Below are positions 37,781 to 57,948 of a stretch of 63,673 nucleotides of DNA, piece by piece. This DNA is from Elusimicrobia bacterium LH_S2. Its GTDB lineage: Bacteria > CG03 > SLGR01 > JAGXOG01. Location: the NCBI GenBank assembly GCA_023660015.1, contig JAGXOG010000001.1, positions 1 to 63,673 on the forward strand, given 5' to 3'. The notes below the pieces were generated by a model that was not told the DNA's origin, did not search any database, and was given only the letters and a program-made list of their open reading frames with translations. A program made the position numbers and the translations under genes. The first letter of the stretch is position 1. Each line of letters starts with the position of its first letter.

Positions 37781-37806
37781 AAGTTTAAAAAAAGGAGTTA
37801 AATAAT

Positions 37807-41210: not shown

Positions 41211-41250
41211 AAGAGTTCTTGACTGTAATTATAAATATTGTTATAAATAG

Positions 41251-42153: not shown

Positions 42154-42166
42154 GGAAAATACTGAA

Positions 42167-42787: not shown

Positions 42788-42788
42788 T

Positions 42789-43106
42789 ATGTCCTCGATC
42801 GGAATGATAGAAACAAAAGGAATGATTGCGATGGTCGAAGCGGCTGATGCAATGGTGAAATCCGCCGATGTAAAGATTATGGGACAAATAAAAAGATACG
42901 GGGGAGGGTTGGTGACTGTAATTGTGGCCGGAGAGGTTGCCGCCTGCCGGGCCGCCTGTGAAGTAGGCAGTGTCGCTGCCCAAAAAGTCGGAGAGCTTGT
43001 AGCAGTCCATGTTATACCCCGGCCGCATGATGAATTAAGTTCAAAATTATCAGTATTAGAAAAAAATTTTAGGAATTATTCCGGATCTGTCAGATATGAT
43101 AAATAA
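42789..43106 (+). CDS. BMC-H shell protein (Pfam00936 type) with repeat-derived C-terminal tail
   Basis: SIGMIETKGMIAMVEAADAMVKSADVKI...[13 protein letters not shown] is canonical BMC-H. The last 12 or so codons and the stop lie inside the MITE-like element that starts at 43071. Confidence 0.85.
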   Translation: MSSIGMIETKGMIAMVEAADAMVKSADVKIMGQIKRYGGGLVTVIVAGEVAACRAACEVGSVAAQKVGELVAVHVIPRPHDELSSKLSVLEKNFRNYSGSVRYDK

Positions 43107-43303
43107 TTTTGTAAAGAGCAGATTCTTTATCTATAGGTTCTCCTTTTGCCCGCAGGGCTCACAAAAGCTATGCTTAAAACTAAAAATTACTCGTCATAGA
43201 AACGAGTTCAGACAATTTAAATTTTTTCTTCTTAAAGAACCGGCATACTTTTGACAGAAGGACAAAGTTACTCAAAATGCACTCTTTACATGGAACAATG
43301 TTA
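43071..43303 (+). mobile_element. MITE-like repeat, type B copy with partly deleted right arm; flanked by AATTTT
   Basis: It aligns with 30731-31229 minus the nested element. AATTTT lies at 43065-43070 and 43304-43309. It sits between two BMC-H genes. Confidence 0.75.
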
Positions 43304-43329
43304 AATTTTAAGAAAGGAAACAATAACTT

Positions 43330-43596
43330 ATGGAAGCACTCGGACTTATAGAAACCAGAGGCCTTGTCGGGGTAATAGAGGCAGCGGATGTAATGGTAAA
43401 GACCGCGTCTGTAAAGATAGTTGGTTTTGAAAAATCGGGCGATGGTATAGTAACCGTAAAAATCAGGGGCCCGGTGGCAGATTGCCGGGTAGCGGTAGAT
43501 GCGGCTGTATCGGCAGCCGGGAAAGTGTCGGAACTTTTATCAGCGCATCTTATACCATTGCCGTTTCCTGATTTAGAAGAGAACTTAAATATATAA
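43330..43596 (+). CDS. BMC-H shell protein
   Basis: EALGLIETRGLVGVIEAADVMVKTASVKIVG...SAHLIP is a canonical single Pfam00936 domain. Confidence 0.9.
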   Translation: MEALGLIETRGLVGVIEAADVMVKTASVKIVGFEKSGDGIVTVKIRGPVADCRVAVDAAVSAAGKVSELLSAHLIPLPFPDLEENLNI

Positions 43597-43623
43597 AGAG
43601 ACAAAAAAAAGAGGTAATATAAT

Positions 43624-43929
43624 ATGCAATTTGGAATTATAACGGGGAATGTTGTTTGCACCACAAAAGATGAAAAAATAGAAGGAAGAAAATTACTGCT
43701 GGTTCAGCCAGTAAATGATGAGTTTAAACCGGAAGGAACCGGGCTGGTGGGTATAGACTCGGTAGGTGCCGGGGAGGGTGAACTCGTACTTTATGTGACC
43801 GGTTCTTCTTCAAGGATGACCGATATTACCGATAACCGTCCTGTAGACTGCACTATAATGGCTATTGTGGATTATGTCAGCAAGAACGATAAGATAATAT
43901 TTGAAAAGTTTAAAGAAGGTCGGGAGTAA
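43624..43929 (+). CDS. BMC-P pentameric vertex protein (EutN/CcmL family)
   Basis: MQFGIITGNVVCTTKDEKIEGRKLLLVQPV....GIDSVGAGEGELVLYVTGSS is the EutN/CcmL pattern. Confidence 0.9.
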   Translation: MQFGIITGNVVCTTKDEKIEGRKLLLVQPVNDEFKPEGTGLVGIDSVGAGEGELVLYVTGSSSRMTDITDNRPVDCTIMAIVDYVSKNDKIIFEKFKEGRE

Positions 43930-43965
43930 AATAAAAATTTTTAAAACCATAATCGGAGGTATTAA

Positions 43966-45381
43966 ATGGATATAAACAAAGAAGAAGTTTCAAAGATAGT
44001 GCGTGAAGTTGTTTCAAGGCTTGAACAAGACGGGCCTGTCTCTTCGCCGTCCGCCGGTGGGTCGGTATTATATGAAACTATGCCTGAGGCAATTGCGGCG
44101 GCAAAATCTGCTCAGGAAAAATTTAAGGGTATGGGGTTGGAATTACGGCGGAAAGTCATAGAAGCTATGCGGGTAGCAGCAAGGGAGCAGGCCGAGACCC
44201 TGGCTAAATCAGCCGCCGCTGAAACAGGAATGGGCAGGTGGGAAGATAAAATAAAGAAAAATCTTTTGGCTGCCGATAAGACTCCCGGTGTAGAAGACCT
44301 TCAGCCGGTAGCTTATACCGGAGATCGGGGGCTAACACTGATAGAGAATGCTCCTTTCGGAGTTATAGGAGCGGTTGCCCCGTCCACAAATCCAACCTCT
44401 ACTGTTATAAATAATGCAATAAGCATAATTGCGGCGGGAAACGCTGTAGTATTTGCTCCGCATCCGGCGGCGAAAAAATCTTCCCAGGAAGCCATGAAAT
44501 GTCTCTCCGGTGCAATAAAATCAGCCGGCGCTCCAGCAGACCTTATAACCGCTATGAGTGACCCCAGCCTGGAAGGCGCACAGATTTTATTTACAGATGA
44601 AGATATAAAAGTACTTCTGGTTACCGGAGGCCCTGCCGTAGTAGCGGCAGCCATGAAAAGCGATAAAAAGATTATCGCCGCAGGCCCGGGAAATCCTCCT
44701 GTGGTAGTTGATGAAACTGCGAATATTAAAAATACCGTAGATTCAGTTATAGATGGAGCAAGTTTTGATAACGGGGCGCTTTGCACCGCAGAAAAAGAAG
44801 TTCTTCTTACAGACGATGCATATGAAGGGGTGATTACAGAAATGCGGGGAAGAAGCGATGTCTACGAGCTTACTTCCGGACAGATGGATAAACTGGCCGA
44901 TATGGTTATTGCCAAATCGGGCAAGGGGGGGGAAGGTTTGATGAACAAAGACTATGTCGGAAAAGACGCTGTTTTTATTGCCAAAGCAATAGGTTTAAAT
45001 ATCCCCCCGGAGGCACGGCTCTTATGGGGCATTGTAGATAAAGAAAATGATTTTATGTGGACCGAACAGCTTATGCCCGTTCTTCCTTTTGCAAAGACAG
45101 GCACTATAGATGATACGATAGAGCTTGCCGTCCGGATGGAAGGGGGAAACGGCCATACGGCTATTATGCATTCATTAAATGTAGAACATCTTACAACTAT
45201 GGCCAGAAAAGGGGCCTGCTCTATTTTTGTTAAAAACGGGCCGTCTTTTATGGGCCTGGGGATGGGTGAAGGCTACGGCGCTCTCTCTATTGCTACTCCT
45301 ACTGGTGACGGCCTTGTAAAAGCGAGTAATTTTACACGGCCTTTAAGGTGCGTGCTGGTAGATTATTTCAGGATAGCTTAG
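43966..45381 (+). CDS. CoA-acylating aldehyde dehydrogenase (EutE/PduP-like) with N-terminal encapsulation-peptide-like helix
   Basis: The region around the catalytic Cys is FDNGALCTAEKE, on an ALDH fold. The N-terminus EEVSKIVREVVSRLEQ is an amphipathic helix followed by a linker. Confidence 0.9.
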   Translation: MDINKEEVSKIVREVVSRLEQDGPVSSPSAGGSVLYETMPEAIAAAKSAQEKFKGMGLELRRKVIEAMRVAAREQAETLAKSAAAETGMGRWEDKIKKNLLAADKTPGVEDLQPVAYTGDRGLTLIENAPFGVIGAVAPSTNPTSTVINNAISIIAAGNAVVFAPHPAAKKSSQEAMKCLSGAIKSAGAPADLITAMSDPSLEGAQILFTDEDIKVLLVTGGPAVVAAAMKSDKKIIAAGPGNPPVVVDETANIKNTVDSVIDGASFDNGALCTAEKEVLLTDDAYEGVITEMRGRSDVYELTSGQMDKLADMVIAKSGKGGEGLMNKDYVGKDAVFIAKAIGLNIPPEARLLWGIVDKENDFMWTEQLMPVLPFAKTGTIDDTIELAVRMEGGNGHTAIMHSLNVEHLTTMARKGACSIFVKNGPSFMGLGMGEGYGALSIATPTGDGLVKASNFTRPLRCVLVDYFRIA

Positions 45382-46706
45382 TGAACAGGGAAGAGATATT
45401 AAATAAAATAATGGATGCCGGGATAGTCGGTGCCGGCGGAGCGGGTTTTCCGTCACATCTTAAAGTATCGGCTGACGTGGATACAGTAATTGCTAACGGC
45501 GCAGAATGCGAACCTCTGCTTTCTACGGACAAGTACCTTATGGAGACAAAAGCCCGCGAAATAGCCGAAGGGTTAAGGCTGATAAAACAGACTACCGGCG
45601 CGAAAAATCTTTATATTGCATTAAAGAAAAAATATAAAAAAGCTGTAGATGCTTTTAATTCTGTTCTCGGTTCGTCTTCGGATATAGAACTCATACTTCT
45701 TGAAAATTATTATCCGGCCGGCGATGAATTTGAGTTGGTATATGATATTACCGAGAGGCTCATCCCGGAAGGCGGTATTCCCCTTAATGTGGGGGTTGTG
45801 GTCACCAATGTCAATACAATATTAAATATATACTTGGCGGTAACTAAACAGCAACCGGGGACTACCCGCTGGGTTACGGTCGCCGGCAACCTGAAAGAGC
45901 CGTATCTTACCGAAGTCCCGGTTGGAATAAAAATCGGGGAGCTGATAAATAAAGCAAAACCAATTGCCGAAGATTATAAAATAGTAGCCGGGGGCCCGAT
46001 GACCGGAGAGATAGTTGATGAAAATTTCAGGGTGACAAAACTTGACGGCGGGGTGCTTGTCCTTCCTGAAGATAACCCGGTCATAGCTAAAAAGATGAGG
46101 ACTTTGCGGTCCTGGGAAAAGATAGGAAAATCTACCTGTGACCAGTGTTTTGATTGTTCAATTGTCTGCCCCCGGAATCTTTTAGGCCATGACCTGGAGC
46201 CGCACAAGATGATGAGGAATCTTTTTATAGATCCTGAAAATTCGCCGGTAGAGATAACAAATTCATATCTCTGCAGCAACTGCGGCCTCTGTGACATGTT
46301 TGCCTGTCCTTTAGGTCTTTCTCCCCGGGCGCTGCTTCAGCAGGCAGCGGCCGAACTTACACAGGATGGGATAAATTCGCCCCATAACCGGACAGAATTA
46401 GAGCCCCATCCGGAAAGAGATTTCAGAAGGGTAAGCACAGACAGGCTCACTGCCCGGCTGGATATAGAAAAGTATGAGATAAACGGAGATTACAGAATTA
46501 AAAAGATAAAAACTTCCAAAGTTATGATACCTTTAAAACAGCATATAGGAGCGCCGGCCGCCGCTGTAGTTAAAAAAGGAGATAAAGTTAAAAAGGGGGA
46601 TCTTATAGCTTCTGTACCTGAAAAAGAAATAGGGGCAAACATACATGCAAGTATTGACGGAACAGTAGCCGGGATAAGAAATGAAAATATTGAAATTAAA
46701 GGATAG
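45381..46706 (+). CDS. PduS/RnfC-like flavo-iron-sulfur protein (two 4Fe-4S motifs, C-terminal RnfC-type barrel-sandwich domain)
   Basis: It contains GIVGAGGAGFPSHLKV, CDQCFDCSIVCP and CSNCGLCDMFACP. A GTG at 45381 overlaps the upstream TAG (TAGTG) with AGGA 7 nt upstream; the track ORF opens at 45348. Confidence 0.8.
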   Translation: MNREEILNKIMDAGIVGAGGAGFPSHLKVSADVDTVIANGAECEPLLSTDKYLMETKAREIAEGLRLIKQTTGAKNLYIALKKKYKKAVDAFNSVLGSSSDIELILLENYYPAGDEFELVYDITERLIPEGGIPLNVGVVVTNVNTILNIYLAVTKQQPGTTRWVTVAGNLKEPYLTEVPVGIKIGELINKAKPIAEDYKIVAGGPMTGEIVDENFRVTKLDGGVLVLPEDNPVIAKKMRTLRSWEKIGKSTCDQCFDCSIVCPRNLLGHDLEPHKMMRNLFIDPENSPVEITNSYLCSNCGLCDMFACPLGLSPRALLQQAAAELTQDGINSPHNRTELEPHPERDFRRVSTDRLTARLDIEKYEINGDYRIKKIKTSKVMIPLKQHIGAPAAAVVKKGDKVKKGDLIASVPEKEIGANIHASIDGTVAGIRNENIEIKG

Positions 46707-46715
46707 GTGATATAG

Positions 46716-47267
46716 ATGAAAAATGCAATTGGTTTAATTGAGTTAAACAGCATAGCCAAAGGTTTTGAAATCACGGATGCTCTTTTAAAGACAGCCGAAA
46801 GCCGGTTGGTGGAAGCTCATTCGGTCTGCCCGGGTAAATTTATCGTTCTTATTACCGGGACTACGGCCGATGTGCAAAGTTCGCTGCAGTCCGGGTTGGA
46901 TATTGCCGCCGATGCTTTTATTGATAAACTTATGATACCTAATATTCACCAGGATTTGGTATCGGCATTAAGAGGGATTACGGCAGTTTCCGAACTGGAA
47001 GCCCTGGGCATTATAGAAACATTTTCTGCGGCTTCGGCCATAATCGCAGCCGACGCGGCGGCAAAAAAAGCTATGGTTAAACTTATTGATATACGGCTGG
47101 CTAATGCTTTGGGAGGCAAAGCTTATCTTACCTTGACCGGGGAAGTAGGAGCAGTTCGCTCGGCGGTAAATGCAGGCAGCAACGCGGTAAAAGTTGCCGA
47201 AGGTATATTAATACGGCGAATTGTTATACCGCGCCCTCACAAGGATTTAAGAAAGAGCGTACTTTAG
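46716..47267 (+). CDS. BMC-T tandem-domain shell protein, PduT-like (Cys38 conserved)
   Basis: There are two Pfam00936-like halves (AIGLIELNSIAKG... and ALGIIETFSAASA...) in 183 aa. A Cys at residue 38 (HSVCPGKF, codon 46827-46829) occupies the position of the PduT 4Fe-4S ligand. Confidence 0.8.
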   Translation: MKNAIGLIELNSIAKGFEITDALLKTAESRLVEAHSVCPGKFIVLITGTTADVQSSLQSGLDIAADAFIDKLMIPNIHQDLVSALRGITAVSELEALGIIETFSAASAIIAADAAAKKAMVKLIDIRLANALGGKAYLTLTGEVGAVRSAVNAGSNAVKVAEGILIRRIVIPRPHKDLRKSVL

Positions 47268-47278
47268 GGAGAAAGATT

Positions 47279-47728
47279 ATGGATATTGTAATTGGTTCAG
47301 ATCACGGCGGCTTTAAATTAAAAGAAGAGATAAAAATATATCTTCAGGATAGAGGGTATAACATTGTTGATTTCGGCACTTATGAGGAAGAATCCTGCGA
47401 TTATCCCGATTATGCGCTTTTAGTAGCCCAAGCTATATTGGACGGGGAATATAAAAAAGGTATTTTATTTGACGGTACCGGGGGAGGAGTATGTCTTACT
47501 GCTAATAAAGTTAAGGGGGTGCGGGCGGTAACTGCTTACAACCGCTTGACCGGAAGCTATGCCTCCGAGCATGATGACTGTAATGTCTTATGTCTGGGAG
47601 GAAAGATGCTCGGGGAACTTGTCGCCAGGGATATAGTCGATGCCTGGTTGGATACTCCGTTCGGCGAGGGGCGCCACCAGAGAAGATTAAATAAGGTGGA
47701 GGATGTGGAAGAGAAATATTTTAAGTAA
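47279..47728 (+). CDS. RpiB/LacA/LacB-family sugar-phosphate isomerase, variant with Asp at the catalytic Cys position
   Basis: IGSDHGGFKLK...GILFDGTGGGVCLTANKVKGVRAV...GEGRHQRRL. The codon at 47471-47473 is GAC, where RpiB normally has the Cys of the ICGTG motif. Confidence 0.8.
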   Translation: MDIVIGSDHGGFKLKEEIKIYLQDRGYNIVDFGTYEEESCDYPDYALLVAQAILDGEYKKGILFDGTGGGVCLTANKVKGVRAVTAYNRLTGSYASEHDDCNVLCLGGKMLGELVARDIVDAWLDTPFGEGRHQRRLNKVEDVEEKYFK

Positions 47729-47789
47729 ACAACGATGAATAGAACTACAGTACCGGCGACATTATTATCTTAGTCTGCTTGTTATGAGG

Positions 47790-47810
47790 TGCCGGCATTT
47801 CCTGCCGGCA
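47790..47810 (+). other. Perfect 8-bp stem hairpin (TGCCGGCA-TTTCC-TGCCGGCA) in the spacer between the two rpiB paralogs
   Basis: It is read directly from the sequence. The stem is GC-rich, sits in an AT-rich 130-nt spacer and has no following U-run. Confidence 0.5.
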
Positions 47811-47858
47811 AATCTGAGAATAAATATTGTCAGTACTGTTTCTACGGAGAATTTTTAG

Positions 47859-48302
47859 ATGAAAATTGCAATTGGGTCAGATCACAGAGGATTTCAATTA
47901 AAAAGAGGACTTAAAAATTTGCTCAATAAGATAGGGCATGAGACAGAAGATATGGGGCCGGATACGGAGGATTCCGTAGATTATCCCATATATGCTAAAA
48001 AAGTCGCCGACAGCGTCTCGTCGGGAAAAACCGTCAAAGGGATAGTTATATGCGGAAGCGGTATCGGGGCATCTATAGCTTCAAATAAAGTTAAAGGTAT
48101 AAGGGCAACTCTTTCCCGCTCTATAAATGATGCTCAAATGGGAGTAAGGCATAATAATGCAAATATTCTTTGCCTGGGAGCGGATGTAACTTCCGGAAAA
48201 AAAGCCGCAAAGATAGTAAGAGAATTTTTAAAAGCAGAATTTGAAGGCGGTAGGCATCAAAGGAGAGTAGATATTATTACTAAAATAGAGGAAGGAAGAT
48301 GA
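47859..48302 (+). CDS. rpiB: Ribose-5-phosphate isomerase B (canonical Cys-type RpiB)
   Basis: IGSDHRGFQLK...GIVICGSGIGASIASNKVKGIRA...EGGRHQRRV. Confidence 0.85.
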   Translation: MKIAIGSDHRGFQLKRGLKNLLNKIGHETEDMGPDTEDSVDYPIYAKKVADSVSSGKTVKGIVICGSGIGASIASNKVKGIRATLSRSINDAQMGVRHNNANILCLGADVTSGKKAAKIVREFLKAEFEGGRHQRRVDIITKIEEGR

Positions 48303-48604
48303 AAGCGGCAAAAGTAGTCGGACGGGTTACGGCCACAACAAAGTATAAAACAATGGAAGGTAAAAAAATCCTTCTTTTAAGACCTCTATCTTGGAGAGAA
48401 GCCGCTCAGGCCTTCCGTTTAAAAGGTAAAGACCTTGCGCCGGAACCCAAAAAATCAATTATCGCTCTTGACTCGGTAGGGGCGGGAGCTTCGGAATATA
48501 TTTTTTATGTTTCTTCAAAAGAAGCTTGCCAGGCTTTTGACAATGACGCTATATGTAATTATGCTGTAATCGGGATACTTGACGGGGTGGATATAAAAGA
48601 GTGA
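48299..48604 (+). CDS. BMC-P pentameric vertex protein (EutN/CcmL family), paralog 2
   Basis: MKAAKVVGRVTATTKYKTMEGKKILLLRPL...ALDSVGAGASEYIFYVSS. The start overlaps the rpiB stop (ATGA). Confidence 0.85.
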   Translation: MKAAKVVGRVTATTKYKTMEGKKILLLRPLSWREAAQAFRLKGKDLAPEPKKSIIALDSVGAGASEYIFYVSSKEACQAFDNDAICNYAVIGILDGVDIKE

Positions 48605-48748
48605 GATAACCATGAATTATTACCAGCAGAAAAGAATTAAAATTAAATCTGTCGGCAGCATTTGTTTTCTCATTCTCGCTACGCTCCGAGGTCGCAAACA
48701 GCTGAATCCGGAGATGAATACCGTCGGTATATTTGGGAGCATTTGTAG

Positions 48749-49042
48749 ATGAAAGTTGCAAAAGTCATAGGTAATGCCTGGGCTACCAGAAAACATCCGA
48801 TTTTAGAGTCAAAAAAACTTTTAATAGTTGAGCCGGTAGACGAAACTACCGCCGTGCCCAACGGGGAACCCTTATTGGCCATTGATTCGGCCGGTGCAGG
48901 TGTGGGGGATACCGTACTGGTGCTGGACGAAGGGACCTCGTGCAGGCAGATAGTGGGTGTGGACCATGCTCCGACCCGGACTATAATAATCGGGATTGTA
49001 GATGAAACTTATAAAAAAGGCAAAAAGAGAAGTTATCATTAA
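48749..49042 (+). CDS. BMC-P pentameric vertex protein (EutN/CcmL family), paralog 3
   Basis: [30 protein letters not shown]...[19 protein letters not shown]. Confidence 0.85.
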
Positions 49043-49065
49043 TTAATAAAAATAAGGAGGAAAAA

Positions 49066-50472
49066 GTGCAGGAGAGTTATATAAAAAAAATTACTGCAGA
49101 AACAATGAACCGTCTGGAGAGTAAAAGAGGGGGTAAACGGGAACTCCTTTTGATATTTATGGGTGGAGACCGCGAAGTTGACGAATCGCTAAACCAGGTA
49201 AAATGTTTAAACGAAATGGGAATAAAATTTTCTGCTTACCTGACCGGTTCCGCTGACCGTATAATCGGCCGCAGCAGAGTTATGGCTGCCGGGGTAGAGA
49301 GAGTAATTGATGAAAGCGAAATATGGGACCGGGGGATACTTGACAAGTATGAAGCCATTATAATTCCGGTTTTGACCTTAAACGGAACGTCTAAGATAGC
49401 CAATATGGTAGCCGATAATCCTGCAAGTAACATAATCCTGCTTGCTTTAAGGCACGAGAAAAAGGTAATTATAGCCCGGGACTCGGTTATAAGCGGCGGA
49501 GGACCACAGCCGCCGGCTACCTCCGCGTTTATGAGAAATGTCAATGAGATGATAAATAAGATTAAAAATTTAGGAGCGACGGTAACAGTGGCTAAAAATT
49601 TAGCCCGACGGATTACGGAAGTATTAAATATATCTGCCCGGCCGGTTTCCGGAAACGCGGTCTCTGTAAACTCTTCGCCTCCTGCAGAAATGCCATGCGG
49701 GGGGGATGTATCTGCATGTGTTGAATGCGGTTTATGTGTGGTAAACCGCACTGAAGATGTTAAGAATATAGTTAATGCCGGGGCAAGTCGAGTATCTGCA
49801 AAGCAGGTAACGGAGGATATAGGAAATGATTTGGCCAAATATATAGATCATACGGATCTTAAGGCTGAGACTACCACAGAAGCTATAGGAAAACTTTGCG
49901 AAGAGGCAAAAGAATATCACTTTGCAACTGTCTGTGTAAATCCGGTTAACGTAAAGACCGCGGCCCAGCTTTTAAAAGGCAGCGGTGTCAGGGTCACTAC
50001 TGTTATAGGTTTCCCGCTGGGGGCCACTACTCCCACGGTAAAAGCATTGGAGGCAAGAGATGCAATAGCCAACGGTGCTGATGAGATAGATATGGTAATA
50101 AATGTCGGAGCCTTAAAAGGCGGAAATTACCGCCTGGTCGAGGACGATATAAAAGCCGTTCGGGAAGCTACAAGGGGTAAAGTCCTTAAAGTAATTTTAG
50201 AGACCTCTCTTTTAGATAACGACCAGATAGTGAAGGATTGTCAGATTTCAAAATCCGCAGGTGCTGATTTTGTTAAAACTTCTACGGGATTCGGTCCCGG
50301 TGGTGCAACCGAAGAAGATGTAAGCTTAATGAGAAAAACAGTAGGTCCGTCCATGGGGGTTAAAGCGGCGGGAGGCATACATTCGGAAGAAGAGGCCGAA
50401 GGCATGGTTAAGGCCGGGGCTTCCCGCATAGGCGCGTCGGCTTCGGTAGCCATAGTTACCGGCGGCGAATAG
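49066..50472 (+). CDS. deoC: Fusion protein: encapsulation-peptide-like helix + flavoprotein-like domain + CxxCxxC motif + deoxyribose-phosphate aldolase (DERA/DeoC)
   Basis: The C-terminal 230 aa or so read DHTDLK...ATVCVNP...IGFPLG...IDMVINVG...LKVILET...[10 protein letters not shown]...VKAAGGI, which is canonical DeoC. The N-terminus has [21 protein letters not shown] (flavoprotein-family-like) and [16 protein letters not shown]. Confidence 0.85.
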
Positions 50473-50550
50473 GAGAGCAATTATTAATAGGTATTTTTAG
50501 TTTATCGGAAATTTGGTAAAGATTGTAAAGAAGTATAAGGAGGAATAAAA

Positions 50551-50838
50551 ATGGCAGAAGCTAAACAAGCTTTAGGTATGATTGAAACTATAGGTCTTGT
50601 AGGTATGATTGAAGCCTCGGATGCTATGGTTAAGGCAGCAAAGGTTGACCTGGCCGGTTATGAGAAAATAGGCCAGGGTTATGTAACGACGATGGTTAGA
50701 GGTGAAGTAGGGGCAGTTAGGGCCGCGGTCGAGGCGGGTTCTACCGCAGCGCAAAAAGTCGGCGAATTAGTCAGCGTTCACGTGATTCCCAGGCCTCACG
50801 AAGATATAGAAAGTATTCTCCCTCAGGGTAACAAATAA
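50551..50838 (+). CDS. BMC-H shell protein (strong AAGGAGG RBS; likely the major shell hexamer)
   Basis: [28 protein letters not shown]...[14 protein letters not shown]. An AAGGAGG lies 7 nt upstream of the ATG. Confidence 0.9.
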
Positions 50839-51250: not shown

Positions 51251-51550
51251 ATGTTAAATAAGGGTATTTTAAAGTTAACAGCCGATACTTTTGTGGATAT
51301 TATCAGCGAAAGAAATATTTCGCCGAAAATTTTGGATAATAAAAGTTATAAATCCGGTTTTTTTCTGCAAAAACCGTTTTCAGTAAACCGCACAACATTA
51401 AAAAACCGCAAAAAACTTATAACCGAAAGATATTTGTTAGACCTTATTGCCGAGGGAAGAAAAAGGGTAAGTTTTAATACCGATGTAATAATTACTCCGG
51501 CGGCAAGGTTAATTATTGAGGAAGGAAAAATAAAGATAGATGAACAATAG
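51251..51550 (+). CDS. Small hypothetical protein; C-terminal motif shared with the TPI N-terminal extension
   Basis: ORF from the track. RKRVSFNTDVIITPAARLIIEEGKIKIDE resembles RKKVVAHSASLVSPYARETALRFGIEIVE in the tpiA extension. It overlaps the next gene by 11 nt. Confidence 0.5.
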   Translation: MLNKGILKLTADTFVDIISERNISPKILDNKSYKSGFFLQKPFSVNRTTLKNRKKLITERYLLDLIAEGRKRVSFNTDVIITPAARLIIEEGKIKIDEQ

Positions 51551-52139
51551 CAATGATATAACTTTAAAGGACTATATAGACAAAGTCGCATCCTCGGCCG
51601 GCACACCCGGCGGCGGGAATGTTATATCTACGGTAAATTCCCTTGCTGCTTCCCTGATGCTTATGTCATTAAGAATAGTAATATTAAAAAAAAATAGCGC
51701 TTCCAAATCCGGCCTTGAGCTTGAAAAAGAACTCATAGTTATTAAAGAGGAATCTCTCGAACTTGCCGAAGCCGACAGCCGGGAATTTAAAGAGGTAATG
51801 AAAAACTGGTCGGGAGGCGGTCATCGCCTGGAAGAATCGCTAAAAGGCGCTGCGATGGTTTCGCTGGAAATTGCCCGAAAAGCTGTTGGCCTTATAGAGC
51901 TCATAGAGGCCCAGGATTTAGACGTTTATAAAAATATTATTACAGATGTAACCATATCTTTCCGGCTTGCCGAATCAGCTTTTCACGGAGGTATTGCCAA
52001 TTGTATTATAAACGCCGGGGCCTTAAGTAAAGAAAAAAATAAAGCAGAAATACTTAAATTGCAAAACGATATTGAAAAAAGGTATGCCCGAATAGCGAAT
52101 AGACTTACCGGTAAGCTTGATTTAATAATTAAAAGATGA
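51540..52139 (+). CDS. Cyclodeaminase/cyclohydrolase-family protein (FTCD C-terminal-domain-like)
   Basis: YIDKVASSAGTPGGGNVISTVNSLAASLMLM is the hallmark ..PtPGGGs.aa..gal.aaL..MV motif of the FTCD_C family. The protein is all-helical and about 200 aa. Confidence 0.7.
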   Translation: MNNSNDITLKDYIDKVASSAGTPGGGNVISTVNSLAASLMLMSLRIVILKKNSASKSGLELEKELIVIKEESLELAEADSREFKEVMKNWSGGGHRLEESLKGAAMVSLEIARKAVGLIELIEAQDLDVYKNIITDVTISFRLAESAFHGGIANCIINAGALSKEKNKAEILKLQNDIEKRYARIANRLTGKLDLIIKR

Positions 52140-53191
52140 CTATAAATAAATGGCAGGTTGTTAATGACCCTTCCCCGAAGTGGGCAAAAAGAATCCGGGC
52201 CGATGTAGTTGCCGACTCCAAAGAGGAAATCTTGGAGGCAATGGAGAACTACCAATATCCGTTTGGGACGGTTTTAAAATCTAAAAATAAAGATTATAAT
52301 TACAGTTTCTTTATCTATGAAGGAGATGACGAAGGCGGAAAAGAGTTAAAACAGGTTTTATCCGGCAAAAAACCTGAAGTTTCGCCGGTTTCTGAGGAAA
52401 CAGAAGATGAATCTGAACCCGGCCACGAAGGAATAAAGCCTGTAGAAGAAACAAAATCTGGATCTGAATCGGTATCCGAAGAGCTTGAATCTGAAGAAAA
52501 ATCAAAGCCTGAGGTTTCCCCGGCGCCCGAAGAAATAAAACCTGAAATTGCTTCTCCCACAGAAGAAGAAAAAATTAAAAATGAAAGATTTGAGCAAGAA
52601 GCGGATATAGTAGAAAAGCCCGGCGATAAAGCTTCCGCAAATAAAGAAGAGCTTCCGGATAAGGGGGAGGATGGATCTGTAATCAAAACCCCGGCACCTG
52701 CCGAAGAAAGAAAGACTCATCAAGTTAAAGAAAAGGATGAAAAATCACCTGAAGATAATAAAGAACCCCGACCCGATGAAGTCGGTAAAAAGGTTTCCCG
52801 GGTTATAAAATTGGGAGTTATCTATTCGCTTCTTTATGAAGACGTAAAAATATCTACAAAACAGCAGCCCGAAGGCGAAGAACCCTTAACAGAAAAGGTC
52901 TATGATATATTTATAAATAATTTAAACGAGATGGTTGCTAAACAGAATATTAAAGTTCTTTTTAAACTTTCTTATCAGATAGGTTATGACGGCCTTCCTG
53001 ACAAAGAAAAGGTAATGGAAGAACAAAAAGAAGCTGATGTATTAGTTATAATTGACGAAAAAGAGGGGACTGAAAAGCTTGAAAATGTTTTTACCCCGGC
53101 GAATATTGCAGTTTATAGTATGCCGGTTAAAGATATCAATAAGGATTACGAATACCTGAATCTTGCTGCGGATATGGCTTTAAGGATTTAA
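52136..53191 (+). CDS. Acidic, low-complexity-linker protein sharing N- and C-terminal modules with the downstream DnaA-like protein
   Basis: ATGA overlap with the upstream gene. A central E/K/P/S-rich stretch of about 170 aa separates the ends. The end modules align with those of the 53193 protein (see findings). Confidence 0.65.
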   Translation: MTINKWQVVNDPSPKWAKRIRADVVADSKEEILEAMENYQYPFGTVLKSKNKDYNYSFFIYEGDDEGGKELKQVLSGKKPEVSPVSEETEDESEPGHEGIKPVEETKSGSESVSEELESEEKSKPEVSPAPEEIKPEIASPTEEEKIKNERFEQEADIVEKPGDKASANKEELPDKGEDGSVIKTPAPAEERKTHQVKEKDEKSPEDNKEPRPDEVGKKVSRVIKLGVIYSLLYEDVKISTKQQPEGEEPLTEKVYDIFINNLNEMVAKQNIKVLFKLSYQIGYDGLPDKEKVMEEQKEADVLVIIDEKEGTEKLENVFTPANIAVYSMPVKDINKDYEYLNLAADMALRI

Positions 53192-53192: not shown

Positions 53193-55199
53193 ATGGCTTT
53201 AAAAAATTATGCTATAGAGCCGGCTCCCAGTCCAAAAGACAAGAACCGGTATAAGTTAAGCATAGCCGGTTCCGAAAAAGATGTAAATAAGCTGGTTAAA
53301 CAGTTAAGCAGTATAAGCAGCCGGCCTTTTCCTTCTCCGGACGATAAATACGGATGGTCTCTTTTTTTGTATAACTTAAAAGAAAGTGCTAAAAATAAAA
53401 TAACCAGCGAACTTGACAAGGTTATAAAAAATAAAAAAAATATCCCAGCCGAAAAACAGAAAAAATCGCGGGATGTTAAAAGTAAATCTACCTCCTCCGG
53501 TAATAATATTTTGTACAGGAGCGAGTTAAAAAAGGATTATACCTTTGATAAATTTATAGTGGGAGCCAATACGCGATTTACTTATGCGGCCTGTAAGGCC
53601 GTCGCAAACAAACCGGGCAAAAACTATAACCCGCTCTTTATATACGGCGGTGTAGGCCTTGGAAAAACCCATCTTATACAGGCGATAGGTCACCATGTAA
53701 AAGAAAATTTTTCGGAGATGAAAATAGAATATATTGCTTGCAGCAAATTTATAAATGAAGTAGTGGCGGCCATTGAAAAAGGAACTATAAATCTATTAAG
53801 AAATAAATTTAAAAATGTAGATTTACTCCTTATAGATGACATAGAGTTTCTTGAACAGTCAGAGTCAACCCAGGAAGAATTTTTTAACATATTTAATGAA
53901 ATGCACGAGGTAGAAAAGCAGATAGTCATTACATCGGATAAACCCCCCAAGAAACTGGTTACCCTTGAGGACCGGTTGAAATCCAGGTTTGAATGGGGGC
54001 TGACGACCGATGTGAAATCCCCCAATTTTGAAACCAGAAAGGCAATACTTAAGAAGAAAGCCGCGGAAGCTAACTTGGAGCTATCGGACCAGATTAATGA
54101 TTTTATTGCCGAAAGGCTGACTTCCAATATCAGAGAGCTAGAAGGAATAATAAACAGGATAGTCGCATACCAGGAACTTTCCGAAGACAATATACAGATA
54201 AATATAAGTATTGTTAAAAATATAATGCGAAATATCCTTCCTGAAGAAGAGAAGGAAGAAGAAAGCCGCCCGGAAAAAGAAAATTCAACAACCGGAGCCC
54301 GCCAGGGGGAAGGCCGAAAGGCGGCCCAATATCCCGGTTACAACCCGCCACCGCCGGTTCCCGGATACCAGCAACAGCAGTACGGAAATAACTGTCCCCG
54401 GTGCAGAAGTCCACTGCGATATATTCCCCAGTTTAAGAGGTGGTATTGCGATAACTGCGGCGTCTATACAGACCCGGCGCCCGGCGCGCCGCTTCCGCCG
54501 GGAAATTATACCGGAGATTATCCGCAGCCGTCTCCATCCCCGCCGCCCCCGCCTCCGTCAAAGTCTCAAACCGCTGCTTCAAGGCCGTGTCCCAACTGTA
54601 GCGCGGAGCTTAAATATATAGATGAATATGACCAGTATTACTGTCCAAACTGTAAAAAATACGAGCAGGAGTTACTCGAAGAAAATGACACTCCGCGAAA
54701 AACTAAGAGTAAAGAAAAGGCGCCGGAGCCGAAGAAGCCTTCTTCAAAGGATTCAAAAGACAAAGAAGAAAATATTGAAGATATTATAATAGGAGAGAAA
54801 AAAGAAGACACCAGGGTTATTAAGGCCGGTTATTTTATCGCCGAAGGAGACCAGAAATTAGCAATAGATATAGCAAACAGGTTAAGTAAGATTGCCCGGC
54901 GCAAAAATATAAAGTTCTATCTGAAAACTCATTTTGCTCATTTTTATCCTAAAAAAGCAAAGTTAAATTATGCGAAGTTTGCCCATATAACTAAAAATAA
55001 CAATGCAGACATTGTTTTATGTCTTGAACCGCCTTCTAATGGTAAGACTGCCCCCGAGGAGTTTAAAGAAGAATTAAGCGCCGCTCTGGATAAAGAAAAC
55101 CTTCCCTATGCCTTTTTGCCCCAGAAGAAGATGAAGGACAGCGATGCGTTAAATTTAATGCTGGATATAGCTATATGCGCAAAGAAAAGAACTAAATAA
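53193..55199 (+). CDS. DnaA-derived AAA+ ATPase lacking DnaA domains I and IV; Pro-rich region with two zinc ribbons and a novel C-terminal module
   Basis: The full DnaA domain III signature is present: YTFDKFIVGANTRFTYAA, NPLFIYGGVGLGKTHL (Walker A), LLLIDDIEFL (Walker B), QIVITSDKPP, RLKSRFEWGL and SNIRELEG. No ..PRQ.AMYL...GGRDHTTV domain IV is present. Instead it has CPRCRSPLRYIPQFKRWYCDNCGVY and CPNCSAELKYIDEYDQYYCPNCKKY. Confidence 0.8.
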   Translation: MALKNYAIEPAPSPKDKNRYKLSIAGSEKDVNKLVKQLSSISSRPFPSPDDKYGWSLFLYNLKESAKNKITSELDKVIKNKKNIPAEKQKKSRDVKSKSTSSGNNILYRSELKKDYTFDKFIVGANTRFTYAACKAVANKPGKNYNPLFIYGGVGLGKTHLIQAIGHHVKENFSEMKIEYIACSKFINEVVAAIEKGTINLLRNKFKNVDLLLIDDIEFLEQSESTQEEFFNIFNEMHEVEKQIVITSDKPPKKLVTLEDRLKSRFEWGLTTDVKSPNFETRKAILKKKAAEANLELSDQINDFIAERLTSNIRELEGIINRIVAYQELSEDNIQINISIVKNIMRNILPEEEKEEESRPEKENSTTGARQGEGRKAAQYPGYNPPPPVPGYQQQQYGNNCPRCRSPLRYIPQFKRWYCDNCGVYTDPAPGAPLPPGNYTGDYPQPSPSPPPPPPSKSQTAASRPCPNCSAELKYIDEYDQYYCPNCKKYEQELLEENDTPRKTKSKEKAPEPKKPSSKDSKDKEENIEDIIIGEKKEDTRVIKAGYFIAEGDQKLAIDIANRLSKIARRKNIKFYLKTHFAHFYPKKAKLNYAKFAHITKNNNADIVLCLEPPSNGKTAPEEFKEELSAALDKENLPYAFLPQKKMKDSDALNLMLDIAICAKKRTK

Positions 55200-55203: not shown

Positions 55204-57117
55204 ATGTTTTTAAGTTTTGGATATATCATCATTTTAACAGTTTCTCTGTTGCTGGCGCTAACCTCCAACGGAACTGCGATTTCAGCTGGGCTCTATCTTA
55301 TAGCGCTTATTACAGTAGTTTTGTTTATAAAAAGGCTGGTAATAAAAAGAGAAATTTATTTTACGCATCTGTGGCAGAATATATATAAGTCGGCATCTAC
55401 AAATATTAATTATTCTTCTGATTTCGGACTGAAGAGAAATTTAGGTCATATATTAAATGATTTATGCGAACTTACCTCTATAACCGGGGCCTGGGTTATA
55501 ATGAAAAATATAGATGGAAATTACAGAATTGAAGTTCAGCGGGGAAGAATTAATCTGTCATATAACCTTGGGATTAAGGATCTATCCGAGTATATTGAAG
55601 GTAATATTAAGGAGTTTGAAAAACCGCTTATCAAAGATCATTTGCCTCCGATGATTAACAGCAAAAAAAAAGGACTATGCCTTCATATACCGATAAGCCG
55701 GGGTAAACTTATACGGGGCGCAGTGACAGTAACTACAACTTCAAAGAGATATTTTAAAAAGCACAGAGTTAATAATTTTGTCAATATAGCAAAATTAATA
55801 GAGCAGCTCTACGAAAATGCCGACCGGAATAATCAACTTCAGAAAGTAGTCAGAAAAGTTAATGAGAAAGTCGATGTGGCCACCGATGAACTTACAAAAA
55901 CAAATATTAGGCTTATAGACAGGGTTAAAGAATTTAAATCTTTGTATGATATATCATTAAGGGTTATAAATGCCGAAACTACCGCCGAGGCGGTGAAGGT
56001 TATATTTAAAAAGATAAAAGTTATTCTGGGAGCTGAAAAGAGTATGTTTTTCGAAAATAGAGACGGAGAGTTCATCCTCAGATATGTAAGTGATGAAAAC
56101 TCTGAGAAAACTTTAAAAGAAAAAACTTTGCCTTTCTCGATCTTGCCCAAAAAAAAGGGAATAATATTAAACGACACTACAAAAGATAAAGATTTAAATC
56201 ATATAACCAAGCAGTATAATTTAAACTATATAATGATTGCTCCGGTAAGAGCCGGGGAAACAATAAAGGGGGTAATTATTACAGGTGTTAAAGAGGGAGG
56301 GGAATTTTCCGGGAGGGATGTTGAACTGCTGGAGATCTATTCAAACCAGTTAGGTGAATATATTGACAGGAAAGGTCTCATGGACAAGGTCATCAGGGAT
56401 AATAAAAGATTAAAAGAGCTAAATGAGGTTAAAGATAAATTTATATCCTTGATATCCCATGAGCTTAGAACACCGCTTACCAATATCAAGGGGTTTGGAG
56501 AACTGCTTTTAGGTGGCGATGTCGGTCAAGTTAATTCTGACCAGGAAAATTTTTTAAAGACGATTTTAAGGTCAACTTTCAAATTGGAAACTACAATTAA
56601 TAACATAATAGAAGTTACTGATTTTAAAAAACACGAAGTAAAGTTAGAAAAAGAAAGTGTAAAATGGGAAGAATTTATAAAAAGCAGTGTTGAAGAGTTT
56701 AGAGAAATTTTGGAGAAGAAGGAAATTAATTGTACAATAAAAGTTGATAGTTCAATAGGGATGTTATATGTTGACCGCAAGCGAGTAAAGAAAGTATTTG
56801 ATAACTTAATAAGCAATGCCGTAAAGTTTATGGGGAAGAAGGGGGATATAACCATAACTTCCGAGAAACAAGGGGAAAAAGTAAAGACGGTTATAAAGGA
56901 TACCGGCATAGGAATTAAAGAATCAATGAAAGATAAAGTCTTTGAGGGTTTTACCCGGGCTGATGAAACCCTAACCAGGAATTCCGACGGGCTGGGGCTG
57001 GGATTAACTTTAGTTAAATATATTATTGGAAACCATGGGGGCAATATTGATATAAAATCAACCCAAGGTAAAGGTACTGAGGTGATTTTTAGTTTACCGG
57101 CAGGGAGGTCAGCTTAA
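55204..57117 (+). CDS. Membrane sensor histidine kinase with GAF-like domains
   Basis: Two N-terminal TM helices. The H-box is ISLISHELRTPLTNIKG. N/G boxes are ..DNLISNAVKF.., DTGIGI and GLGLGLTLVKYII..HGG. Confidence 0.85.
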   Translation: MFLSFGYIIILTVSLLLALTSNGTAISAGLYLIALITVVLFIKRLVIKREIYFTHLWQNIYKSASTNINYSSDFGLKRNLGHILNDLCELTSITGAWVIMKNIDGNYRIEVQRGRINLSYNLGIKDLSEYIEGNIKEFEKPLIKDHLPPMINSKKKGLCLHIPISRGKLIRGAVTVTTTSKRYFKKHRVNNFVNIAKLIEQLYENADRNNQLQKVVRKVNEKVDVATDELTKTNIRLIDRVKEFKSLYDISLRVINAETTAEAVKVIFKKIKVILGAEKSMFFENRDGEFILRYVSDENSEKTLKEKTLPFSILPKKKGIILNDTTKDKDLNHITKQYNLNYIMIAPVRAGETIKGVIITGVKEGGEFSGRDVELLEIYSNQLGEYIDRKGLMDKVIRDNKRLKELNEVKDKFISLISHELRTPLTNIKGFGELLLGGDVGQVNSDQENFLKTILRSTFKLETTINNIIEVTDFKKHEVKLEKESVKWEEFIKSSVEEFREILEKKEINCTIKVDSSIGMLYVDRKRVKKVFDNLISNAVKFMGKKGDITITSEKQGEKVKTVIKDTGIGIKESMKDKVFEGFTRADETLTRNSDGLGLGLTLVKYIIGNHGGNIDIKSTQGKGTEVIFSLPAGRSA

Positions 57118-57590
57118 TGGCAGACAAACAGTATCGCCAAGATGCAAAGAAAAAGCGTCCGCCGCTTCTGCTTCTAATAGACCCGGACAGGGAGGAAGTC
57201 AAGCTAATAAAGAATTATTTTAAAAAGGAAAGTTTCCGGTGCGTAATAGCATATGATGGAATAAGGGGGATTGTGCATGCTCTTAACGATAAACCTGATC
57301 TTATAATTACCGAACTCGTAGTTCCCAGGTTAAGCGGATATGATATAATAAAAAGGCTGCAGATGGTTTCAACCCGGACAAAAAACATTCCGATTGTAAT
57401 ATTAACCGGAAAGACTATGGATGCGAAGTCAAAAAAAAGGCTGACTGATTTAGAAGAGAATGTCGTTGAATTTATGCCTAAACCGATAACCCGGGGGTCA
57501 TTTATGGTTAAGATACATAAGATATTGAAGACCGGAAAAACAGAGAGAAAAATACTTGACAGACATGAAAAGGAGAGGCGAAATGAATAA
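57117..57590 (+). CDS. Receiver-domain protein with Glu in place of the phospho-acceptor Asp (pseudo-receiver)
   Basis: It has the CheY-like layout LLLIDPD...PDLIITELVVPRLSGYD...IVILTGK...MPKPI. The acceptor position is E66 (GAA at 57312-57314). The start overlaps the kinase stop. Confidence 0.7.
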   Translation: MADKQYRQDAKKKRPPLLLLIDPDREEVKLIKNYFKKESFRCVIAYDGIRGIVHALNDKPDLIITELVVPRLSGYDIIKRLQMVSTRTKNIPIVILTGKTMDAKSKKRLTDLEENVVEFMPKPITRGSFMVKIHKILKTGKTERKILDRHEKERRNE

Positions 57591-57948
57591 AATAATGATA
57601 GTCGAAGATGACAACACTACCATAAAGCTTTTAAAATATTTACTGGGAAAAAACAACTATGAAGTAGCAGTATGTGAAAACGGAAAAATTGCCGTAGATT
57701 CAATTATGGACGAAGATCCCGATTTAATATTAATGGATATTATGATGCCGGAGATGGACGGACTTGAGGCGACAGAAAAAATAAGGGATATAAATAAATT
57801 TTCAGATACGCCTATAATAATGCTTTCCGCGCTGGGGCAGGAAATAGAAGTTGCTAAAGGATTAAAGGCCGGTGCAGACGGTTATGTAGTTAAACCTTTT
57901 GATACCCAATCCCTTGTAAGACAGATCAAAGAAAAGCTCTCTTCTTGA
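57583..57948 (+). CDS. Single-domain CheY-like response regulator
   Basis: KIMIVEDDNTTIKLL...DLILMDIMMPEMDGLEA...PIIMLSALG...GADGYVVKPF. An AAAGGAGAGG SD lies upstream of the ATG at 57583; the track ORF opens at 57556. Confidence 0.85.
   Translation: MNKIMIVEDDNTTIKLLKYLLGKNNYEVAVCENGKIAVDSIMDEDPDLILMDIMMPEMDGLEATEKIRDINKFSDTPIIMLSALGQEIEVAKGLKAGADGYVVKPFDTQSLVRQIKEKLSS

Follow-up and report, generated by a model that had tools for sequence, protein, structure and literature searches.

A DnaA-derived AAA+ protein family of Elusimicrobia that lacks DnaA domain IV and carries two family-specific terminal modules

In this work, we analysed a stretch of DNA of 63,673 nucleotides (the window), in which an uninterrupted open reading frame (ORF) of 668 aa plus stop encodes a DnaA-derived AAA+ protein, here named X (Table 1). 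The peculiarity of this ORF had been noticed in an earlier reading of the letters alone (the sequence-only reading), and the observation is real. In X, DnaA domain III is joined by one linker to an N-domain of ~75 aa and by a second, Pro-rich linker to a Rossmann-like C-domain of ~130 aa. The same layout was found in ~100 protein clusters, all of whose taxon-level source names are Elusimicrobia or Elusimicrobiota, and because of this recurrence the architecture is not attributable to chance. Independent assemblies (NCBI, JGI, ENA, Logan) hold an identical X protein as well as the ~100 related clusters, whose domains are ordered alike, and an alignment of 29 diverse family members displayed 68 invariant columns. 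To gather the loci of the family, we used a degenerate DNA pattern that encodes its specific [A/S]ESTQEEFF loop. Among the family-bearing assemblies are GCA_028718185.1 (P0090, on a 970-kb contig) and GCA_016934855.1, along with the JGI contigs Ga0209310_1000007 (594 kb) and Ga0496346_000002 (407 kb). A literature search found no paper describing this family or tying DnaA to sugar-phosphate-utilisation (SPU) loci.

Table 1. Genes and protein features at the X locus, in window coordinates.
Feature	Position (nt)	Strand	Residues of X (aa)	Basis and remarks
Genes of a 99-aa protein (no assignment) and a 199-aa FTCD_C/FchA-like protein	51251..52139	+		Pfam; just upstream
Paralog of 351 aa without ATPase: N- and C-domain joined by an acidic disordered linker	52136..53191	+		hhalign
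X, DnaA-derived AAA+ protein	53193..55199	+	1-668	ORF list; identical public protein P0001
N-domain, in place of DnaA domain I	53193..53417	+	1-75	Conservation and AF2
Linker 1, Lys/Ser-rich	53418..53516	+	76-108	Length and composition vary across the family
DnaA domain III (AAA+ core and lid)	53517..54242	+	~109-350	PF00308, TIGR00362 and motifs
Linker 2	54243..54803	+	351-537	Composition-based; variable across the family
Putative zinc ribbon 1, CPRC-x13-YCDNC	54393..54458	+	401-422	Regex
Putative zinc ribbon 2, CPNC-x13-YCPNC	54588..54653	+	466-487	Regex
C-domain, family-specific, Rossmann/flavodoxin-like	54804..55196	+	538-668	Alignment and AF2
GAF histidine kinase	55204-57117	+		Pfam; begins 4 nt past the X stop
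Stand-alone receiver proteins	57117-57590 and 57556-57948	+		Pfam

The central part of X corresponds to DnaA domain III. The Pfam model PF00308 (Bac_DnaA) was covered over its full length at aa 112-273 (E 2.9e-65), and the complete set of diagnostic AAA+ motifs announced by the sequence-only reading was located, namely Walker A (GGVGLGKTHL, aa 152-161), Walker B (LLLIDDIEFL, aa 211-220), sensor I (ITSDKPP, aa 246-252), box VII with the arginine finger (RLKSRFEWGL, aa 261-270) and sensor II (SNIRELEG, aa 311-318). Across the family, 96-97 of 97 members retain the Walker A Lys, the Walker B DD, the sensor I Asp, R281/R285 of box VII, L290 and R334 of sensor II (E. coli DnaA numbering). The NCBIfam model TIGR00362 aligned its positions 57-345 (of 437) to aa 64-357 of X, with a whole-protein score of 339.5 bits that falls slightly under the curated cut-off of 343.9. 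The core had been taken for that of DnaA, and the scores agree with a DnaA-type and not an Hda- or IstB-type ATPase: X reached 118.3 bits against the Hda model TIGR03420 (cut-off 194.8), 68.8 against IstB (NF038214, cut-off 200) and 25.1 against DnaC (NF005931, cut-off 357), and its Walker A/B region weakly matches IstB/DnaC/DnaI, members of the same AAA+ initiator/loader clade (PF01695, E 1e-10). Furthermore, domain III of the family shares 43-62% identity (mean 53%) with canonical domain III; this conservation, on a par with that of true DnaAs, is seldom expected of a paralog whose function is unrelated.

The residues that handle single-stranded DNA (ssDNA) display a mixed picture. The base-capture residues I190, I193, R202 and E228 (B. 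subtilis numbering), whose roles were defined in work on B. subtilis DnaA (PMC10721633), are kept in 82-97 of 97 members. In the same protein, K222 of the alpha5-alpha6 loop contacts the ssDNA backbone phosphate and is essential (PMC10721633); at the equivalent loop position, X has Ser, 95 of 97 members have Ala or Ser, and all 20 canonical proteins compared have Lys. The loss of this one Lys was considered as a unique family marker and rejected, as five pattern matches turned out to be domain-IV-bearing DnaAs with Ala or Ser there, each of which carries an Arg or Lys elsewhere in the loop. Since such canonical proteins exist, the marker of the family is the lack of any basic residue in the alpha5-alpha6 loop, where one occurs in 8 of 94 family proteins and 0 of 60 locus ORFs, versus 103 of 103 canonical DnaAs. 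This loss argues against DnaA-like strand engagement.

The similarity had been said to end where domain IV should start, which is where the TIGR00362 alignment stops (model position 345 of 437). A PF00308 match accompanied by neither PF08299 (Bac_DnaA_C) nor PF11638 (DnaA_N) had been predicted, and exactly this was returned by the Pfam scan, in which X matched neither model even at E<=0.1. In addition, our own domain-IV HMM matched every canonical DnaA in the fetched loci and zero family members. A hidden, divergent domain IV was ruled out by the Pfam scan, by this HMM and by the predicted fold of the C-terminal region, which is Rossmann-like and not HTH.

At the other end, the N-terminal 110 aa had been described as unlike DnaA domain I, which stands, with the refinement that the first ~75 aa constitute a conserved, family-specific module of their own. 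This N-domain is conserved in 41 diverse members, P12 and R19 being invariant, and its AF2 model is an alpha+beta fold of order b-b-a-b-a (pLDDT 82.5). Its assignment to DnaA domain I or any other known fold was discarded, given that PF11638 was not matched and that comparison of the model with solved structures in the PDB, domain I included, gave no significant fold match (best E 0.13). A search of a 5.8-billion-protein collection with the N-domain matched a single fragment.

The tail of X had been called alpha/beta-looking, and its AF2 model, built from a 45-sequence alignment, is b-a-b-a-b-a-b-a (pLDDT 84.9, pTM 0.77), with an invariant L-N-x-x-L-D helix at the end. The C-domain was found in 115 representatives only among 1.84 billion proteins, always at the C-terminus, and a Pfam scan of 45 members assigned no Pfam family to any of them. 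Foldseek returned generic fold matches only (TM<=0.64, E 2e-4 to 5e-3, identity 6-17%), with no DNA-binding fold among the top 50. The MID domains of Argonaute/PIWI (best TM-scores, 0.58-0.64), lumazine synthase and PTS IIB share with it a three-layer alpha/beta Rossmann/flavodoxin-like topology, which, with no sequence-profile link to any of the three, is a likeness of fold class and not family membership. A TIR assignment, raised by one marginal PDB-profile match (E 0.019), was supported neither by the Foldseek top 50 nor by the Pfam scan of the 45 members. Neither the N-domain family nor the C-domain family has a Pfam model.

Both linkers are variable. Among full-length members, the start of Walker A ranges from residue 129 to 388. 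Linker 2 of X has an acidic start, followed by a Pro/Gln/Tyr-rich region with both putative ribbons and by a Lys/Glu-rich stretch, with a composition of P31, E21, K19 and Y14 in 187 residues. The ribbons gave weak matches, to DZR_2 for the first (14.6 bits) and to DZR for the second (13.6 bits), both below the ~27-bit Pfam cut-offs (27 and 27.3 bits). The Pro-rich spacer with two CPxC ribbons is present as previously described. The ribbons do not mark the family as a whole and are a clade-specific insertion, with 2, 1 or 0 copies depending on the clade, two only in the clade closest to X and none in most members.

The terminal modules also occur apart from the ATPase. The 351-aa paralog, whose stop lies 1 nt ahead of the X start, matched the N-domain profile (hhalign probability 95, E 3e-8) and the C-domain profile (probability 96, E 5e-9), and no Pfam family. 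Short proteins of this kind, with both domains and no ATPase, adjoin X here and in ~10 other loci. In one locus (L009), the N-domain forms a fusion with a GGDEF cyclase, and a protein made of the C-domain alone is encoded beside pilT; the two domains are therefore separable, each being found there without the other. Furthermore, in a derived clade that retains the N- and C-domains, arginine finger and sensor II have both been lost, and this clade cannot for this reason be an initiator; its one examined locus (L088) occupies the same tpiA-deoC position.

The genes surrounding X are tightly arranged, with start and stop codons that abut or overlap. Upstream, the 199-aa protein (Pfam FTCD_C, E 4e-25) is joined to the next gene by an ATGA overlap; in other loci with pilT, it is pilT that directly follows the 99-aa-type gene, and none of the genes there is labelled FTCD_C. 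Among 52 distinct loci, all labelled neighbours are co-directional in the order tpiA-(pduL)-rpiB-(deoC)-(pilT)-X-(HK/RR)-tkt, with HK genes following X in 14 loci and RR genes in 19, and the identity of pilT was supported by TIGR01420 (438.9 bits, cut-off 319). The co-directional cluster also holds deoB and PNP together with deoC and tkt, and in the window it sits inside a DNA/nucleoside-scavenging island with a microcompartment. Within a single phylum, part of this conserved order may be due to common descent and not to function.

The gene of X is not at an origin, as no skew switch, DnaA box or dnaN accompanies it: GC skew is positive throughout the window with no inflection, DnaA boxes (TTATNCACA) number 0 in the window versus 2.08 expected, and dnaN was not found in the window by Pfam scans. 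The scanned genes of the window, i.e., most ORFs of at least 150 aa, included no transposase and no replicative helicase.

The evidence for a canonical DnaA in the same genomes, to which X would be paralogous, is indirect. A profile search of genome contigs gave, among the matches listed, canonical DnaAs of other phyla and two family loci (L008 and L009), and the cluster names for nine canonical DnaA matches include no Elusimicrobia. One canonical protein (P0101) lies in a locus of gidA-rnpA and dnaA-dnaN-S4-recF-gyrB, a context that we take to be typical of Firmicutes, and shares no assembly with the fetched family loci. The DciA gene of Elusimicrobium minutum is Emin_0004, implying a dnaA-dnaN-recF operon at the genome start of this species, which may or may not carry the X family. 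In the Elusimicrobia endosymbiont 'Ca. Endomicrobium trichonymphae', dnaA has been reported as a pseudogene.

DnaA is the universal bacterial initiator, and the X family shares with it the motifs for catalysis and oligomerisation, the base-capture residues of the ISM and the lid, whereas it differs by having no domain I, no domain IV HTH and no ssDNA-contact Lys, by a gene with no origin or dnaN adjacency, and by the extra N- and C-modules, the putative zinc ribbons and the ATPase-less paralogs. We consider it somewhat probable, on the whole, that X represents a conserved DnaA-derived AAA+ family of Elusimicrobia whose members are not initiators and act as ATP-dependent, self-assembling paralogs that engage partners through their N- and C-domains. 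The family would descend from the replication initiator, with the domain III engine for ATP binding and self-assembly kept nearly intact, and with domains I and IV swapped for two globular modules of its own, tethered by long flexible linkers. From the conserved motifs we infer that the arginine finger and sensor II would mediate a head-to-tail oligomer of DnaA type upon ATP binding, which may form on ssDNA because the base-capture pocket is retained, and that partner proteins would bind to the N- and C-domains. The likeliest partners would be the co-encoded ATPase-less paralogs with the same modules, the PilT ATPase and the signalling proteins of the cluster.

A bolder form of this proposal, which we put forward tentatively and rate as doubtful, is that the DnaA filament engine has been reused outside origin firing, building nucleotide-controlled assemblies on ssDNA or on DnaA whose modules would link them with PilT and with two-component and c-di-GMP signalling, and which would let DNA uptake or nucleoside scavenging bear on decisions about replication or the cell cycle throughout the phylum. 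Its extreme variant, which is counted within it and is very improbable, would make X the sole initiator in lineages without a canonical DnaA. To our knowledge, Hda/HdaA is the single well-studied class of DnaA paralogs without domain IV; if the interpretation is correct, a second, phylum-wide and unusually well conserved family of this kind would be evidence that the engine of DnaA can be put to other uses, and would offer a route to study the links of replication, DNA or nucleoside scavenging, and signalling in a poorly known phylum. Instead of being the initiator, X probably constitutes a DnaA-like switch of a new type.

The comparison with Hda leads to the strongest of the alternatives, namely that X regulates the canonical initiator by co-assembling with DnaA filaments, capping them or stimulating ATP hydrolysis in them, as an Hda-like factor or filament poison, and would thereby tie initiation to the supply of nucleosides and deoxyribose and to the adjacent two-component signalling. 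X shares with Hda/HdaA its descent from the DnaA AAA+ ATPase, the absence of domain IV and a retained arginine finger; finger, sensor II and oligomer-interface L290 are invariant, the high identity of domain III suggests that a DnaA-shaped partner is still met, the lost ssDNA-contact Lys fits a non-melting subunit, and the cluster with deoC, deoB, PNP and tkt is consistent with the metabolic link. Hda proteins are, however, of ~230-250 aa, much more diverged from DnaA than X, and defined as a family by an N-terminal clamp-binding motif that they need, whereas X has 668 aa with two extra globular domains, scores well under the Hda cut-off, and belongs to a family in which a beta-clamp-binding motif (QL[SDE]LF or QLxLPL type, regex) was found in 0 of 100 proteins. 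Moreover, the ATPase-less paralogs and the finger-less clade keep the N- and C-domains, which points to a function centred on the end modules and not on DnaA, and we regard a role as DnaA regulator as unlikely.

Much less probable is that X acts as the sole replication initiator, with the C-domain, the zinc ribbons or both replacing the DnaA-box HTH at the origin. The very conserved domain III, base-capture residues included, would suit this role, as would the name DnaA given to X in public records, the dnaA pseudogene of the endosymbiont and the fact that, among the matches listed, no canonical DnaA was found for family-bearing genomes. Yet the gene lies among tpiA, rpiB, deoC and pilT with no origin signal nearby, most members have no zinc ribbons, the C-domain matches no DNA-binding fold, and the ssDNA-contact Lys is lost. 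The end modules are, in addition, shared with ATPase-less and finger-less relatives, short paralogs (in the window and L009) and a finger-less protein (L088) occur in the same cluster, and the position of DciA implies a standard replication operon in E. minutum.

We give hardly any credence to X being a part of the SPU microcompartment, as cargo scaffold or positioning ATPase. The gene ends the BMC locus here, follows BMC shell genes, DeoC and aldehyde dehydrogenase in the window and in four other loci (L006, L007, L008 and L149), and encodes long disordered linkers that recall those of carboxysome scaffold proteins. The window locus does adjoin an SPU-type locus, but a BMC shell gene was found upstream in only 8 of the 52 family loci, most of which read tpiA-rpiB-X or deoC-pilT-X with shells out of reach, and term searches of the SPU literature found no mention of DnaA, which also counts against this role. 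Finally, a chimera of the assembly, an erroneous gene fusion or a dnaA pseudogene in decay, suggested by nothing but the unusual architecture, can be dismissed as an explanation, being refuted by the recurrence of that architecture in independent assemblies, the intact ORF and the invariant columns among diverse members.

In public records, proteins of the family are labelled 'chromosomal replication initiator protein DnaA' despite having no DNA-binding domain, a label that can mislead the origin-prediction, genome-rotation and marker-gene steps relying on it.

The family represented by X was shown to be a DnaA-derived ATPase in which the engine is intact, the DnaA-box reader is absent, and two private end modules are present. 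The reading frame of X is real, and every AAA+ motif quoted by the sequence-only reading was recovered in its product (see the table). The Pfam searches likewise agreed with that reading: Bac_DnaA (PF00308) was covered over the full model (E 2.9e-65), no match to DnaA_N (PF11638) or Bac_DnaA_C (PF08299) was obtained even at E<=0.1, and the remaining signals were limited to a weak Hda_lid match and sub-threshold double-zinc-ribbon matches. The NCBIfam DnaA model TIGR00362 aligned residues 64-357 with model positions 57-345 of 437 (339.5 bits, slightly under the 343.9 cut-off), so the match stops at the border of domains III and IV, exactly where similarity had been claimed to end. Competing NCBIfam scores were 118.3 bits for Hda and 68.8 bits for IstB, placing the AAA+ core with DnaA rather than IstB.

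Coordinates of the features discussed, in the window, in X and in relative loci
Feature	Location	Strand	Length	Remarks
X	window 53193-55199	+	668 aa	
Walker A	X aa 152-161
Walker B	X aa 211-220
Sensor I	X aa 246-252
Box VII	X aa 261-270
Sensor II	X aa 311-318
Ribbon 1	X aa 401-422			CPRC-x13-YCDNC
Ribbon 2	X aa 466-487			CPNC-x13-YCPNC
Short paralog	window 52136-53191		351 aa	
Giant ORF	window 118-13314	+	4398 aa	two PLD-like (Nuc-type), lamin-tail and Ig-like domains
dprA-topA-xerC/D cluster	window 18421-22559	+		about 30 kb upstream of X
Nucleoside genes and SPU-type locus	window 35876-50838	+		5'-nucleotidase, NupC-type nucleoside transporter, GAF-GGDEF cyclase, then complete SPU-type locus
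DeoC fusion	window 49066-50472	+	468 aa	aldolase with N-terminal flavoprotein-like domain, joined via Cys-rich stretch
Stand-alone receivers	window 57117-57590 and 57556-57948	+		35-nt overlap, different frames
N-domain-GGDEF diguanylate cyclase	L009 6739-8172		477 aa	upstream of pilT
Apparent linker + C-domain-like protein	L009 9279-9986		235 aa	between pilT and X
Distant-group proteins	L088 10001-13564 (P0225)			also P0212, P0217, P0227, P0230, P0224, P0232, P0216, P0223

A search of 5.8 billion proteins retrieved an identical protein, along with about 100 clusters (550-850 aa) that all contain PF00308 and lack PF08299; canonical DnaAs first appeared at about rank 100. Public records label the family DnaA, and no description of it was found in a literature search. 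Source names of the relatives included Elusimicrobia or Elusimicrobiota (16), only 'bacterium' (3) and 'subsurface metagenome' (1), and the two GTDB genomes carrying the family are one Elusimicrobia and one Endomicrobia MAG. The alignment revealed a fixed order consisting of a conserved N-domain of ~75 aa, a variable low-complexity linker, DnaA domain III, a Pro/Gln-rich linker, and a conserved C-domain of ~130 aa terminating in an invariant L-N-x-x-L-D. Neighbour joining on domain III placed the family, with the degenerate group nested inside it, in a single clade separate from 30 canonical DnaAs (46/50 bootstraps); identity to canonical sequences was 43-62% (mean 53%), versus 49-98% (mean 64%) among the latter. 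The family is best read as a class of DnaA paralogs separate from Hda, and adds two domain families for which Pfam has no model.

Residue conservation was assessed by comparing 97 family domain III cores with 20 canonical DnaAs. The ATPase and interface residues have all been preserved (K178, D235/D236, D269, R281, R285, L290 and R334, E. coli numbering), and X would probably assemble head-to-tail in the ATP-dependent manner of DnaA. According to the cryo-EM model for B. subtilis, the DnaA-trio bases are captured by I190, I193, R202 and E228, and K222 is an essential, phosphate-contacting residue (PMC10721633). The four base-capture residues are kept in 82-97 of the 97 members, N187 (B. subtilis numbering) is only partly kept, and the K222 position is Ala or Ser in 95/97. 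A basic residue in the K222 loop was present in 8/94 family proteins and 0/60 family locus ORFs, versus 103/103 canonical DnaAs from many phyla. X may still contact ssDNA, as the base pocket is kept despite the loss of the backbone lysine. Some domain-IV-bearing DnaAs from metagenome loci (L111, L146, L166 and L185) also have Ala at this position, but with Arg residues on its flanks (loop ..RAERTQEEFF); the basic contact is evidently able to shift within the loop. No clamp-binding motif was found among 100 family members.

Outside domain III, the earlier description of X was also upheld, both for the pair of putative zinc ribbons in a Pro-rich spacer (31 Pro in 187 residues) and for the unusual ends. 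Ribbon number varies by clade: two copies are present in the clade of the window, a single copy in a second clade and none elsewhere. The ribbons are an add-on to the family rather than its hallmark. The expected alpha/beta tail was modelled with AlphaFold2 from a 45-sequence alignment as a b-a-b-a-b-a-b-a, Rossmann/flavodoxin-like C-domain (pLDDT 84.9, pTM 0.77). Foldseek against PDB returned only fold-class neighbours (E 2e-4 to 5e-3, TM <=0.64), and the likeness to lumazine synthase, Argonaute/PIWI MID domains and PTS IIB is one of fold class only; a profile search of PDB sequences gave a single marginal TIR match (E 0.019), and no Pfam family recurred among the 45 members scanned. A cryptic domain IV in the C-terminus was excluded, since the model contains no helix-turn-helix. 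The N-domain, predicted as b-b-a-b-a (pLDDT 82.5), matched no PDB fold (best E 0.13); with DnaA domain I structures absent from the matches and no PF11638 hit, the N-terminus is indeed unlike DnaA domain I.

Among 1.84 billion representative proteins, the C-domain profile had only 115 hits, C-terminal in every one, which fell into the DnaA-fused family, short proteins of 310-360 aa carrying no Pfam domain, and a distant group of 450-1190 aa. Four retrieved short proteins (P0179, P0197, P0213 and P0214; 321-357 aa) have an N-domain-type start, a disordered linker and the C-domain. The ORF immediately upstream, with its stop 1 nt ahead of the X start codon, also has no Pfam match and, judged by hhalign against the N-domain (prob 95, E 3e-8) and C-domain (prob 96, E 5e-9) profiles, is a paralog of X in which an acidic linker replaces the ATPase; short paralogs adjoin X in about ten other loci. 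In L009, a locus of an Endomicrobia MAG, the order is deoC, an N-domain-GGDEF protein, pilT, a 235-aa protein and X, where a C-domain-like end was assigned to the 235-aa product by visual inspection of its C-terminal motif and was not reported by the C-domain HMM. This arrangement indicates that the modules are separable, and that one can sit on a c-di-GMP synthase. Both end modules probably dock partners, with same-module paralogs, PilT and signalling proteins as obvious candidates.

The distant group combines a very long acidic low-complexity linker (up to ~700 residues), a degenerate DnaA-like ATPase and the C-domain, with an N-domain-like N-terminus in the six full sequences read. Walker A and B are retained, but the arginines of box VII and the one of sensor II have been lost. 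In L088, the single locus of this group examined, tpiA-deoC lies directly upstream, with an overlapping start codon. ComM and DprA are encoded downstream of P0225, and the window has its own dprA cluster.

The gene of X was shown not to lie at an origin: GC skew is positive in each 2-kb bin of the window, the TTATNCACA site is absent (2.08 expected), and the window genes that were scanned with Pfam included no dnaN. Instead, X lies in a conserved co-directional gene cluster. Six family loci and L088 were annotated by look-up; after metagenomes had been scanned for a DNA pattern specific to the family, the total stood at 52 distinct loci, and in every one (52/52) the labelled neighbours share the strand of X. 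The upstream order is tpiA-(pduL)-rpiB-(TPR-unknown)-(deoC)-(pilT)-(short paralogs)-X, with counts of 33 for rpiB, 26 for tpiA, 19 for deoC, 18 for pilT-type and 8 for BMC genes; the downstream order is X-(HK)/(RR RR)-tkt-(adenine deaminase-deoB or pho4-phoU)-PNP, with 19 for RR, 19 for tkt and 14 for HK, and in many loci X is followed by a pair of receiver genes. Profile scoring makes the pilT assignment firm, as the product of L001 8855-9931 reached 438.9 bits with TIGR01420 (PilT/PilU family; cut-off 319); BLAST-labelled relatives, including a 360-aa copy in L009, lie directly upstream of X or its short paralogs in 18/52 loci, and no other pilus genes occurred among the labelled neighbours.

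The main rival reading is that X regulates DnaA directly, as opposed to having a DnaA-independent role. That X is the sole initiator is unlikely: dnaA is reportedly a pseudogene in one Elusimicrobia endosymbiont, but ATPase-less and finger-less relatives share the end modules and, where examined, occupy the same gene cluster, the locus of X lacks an origin signature, and DciA of E. minutum is Emin_0004, implying that this genome begins with a normal replication operon.

Every large ORF of the window lies on the + strand, and X closes an SPU-type microcompartment locus comprising tpiA, pduL, BMC-H/T/P shell genes, an aldehyde dehydrogenase, an RnfC-like gene, two rpiB and the flavoprotein-DeoC fusion. 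This fusion also occurs in the relative loci L006 and L007; in family loci without shell genes DeoC is plain (211-227 aa). Downstream come genes for a GAF histidine kinase, two receiver proteins, transketolase, adenine deaminase and phosphopentomutase. Taken as a whole, the region resembles a DNA/nucleoside-scavenging island, in agreement with the role that has been proposed for SPU compartments (PMC8217296). The product of the giant ORF resembles a secreted or surface-located nuclease, and this would suit the scavenging theme. Finally, given their overlap, the start of the second receiver ORF (TTG at 57556) may be miscalled.
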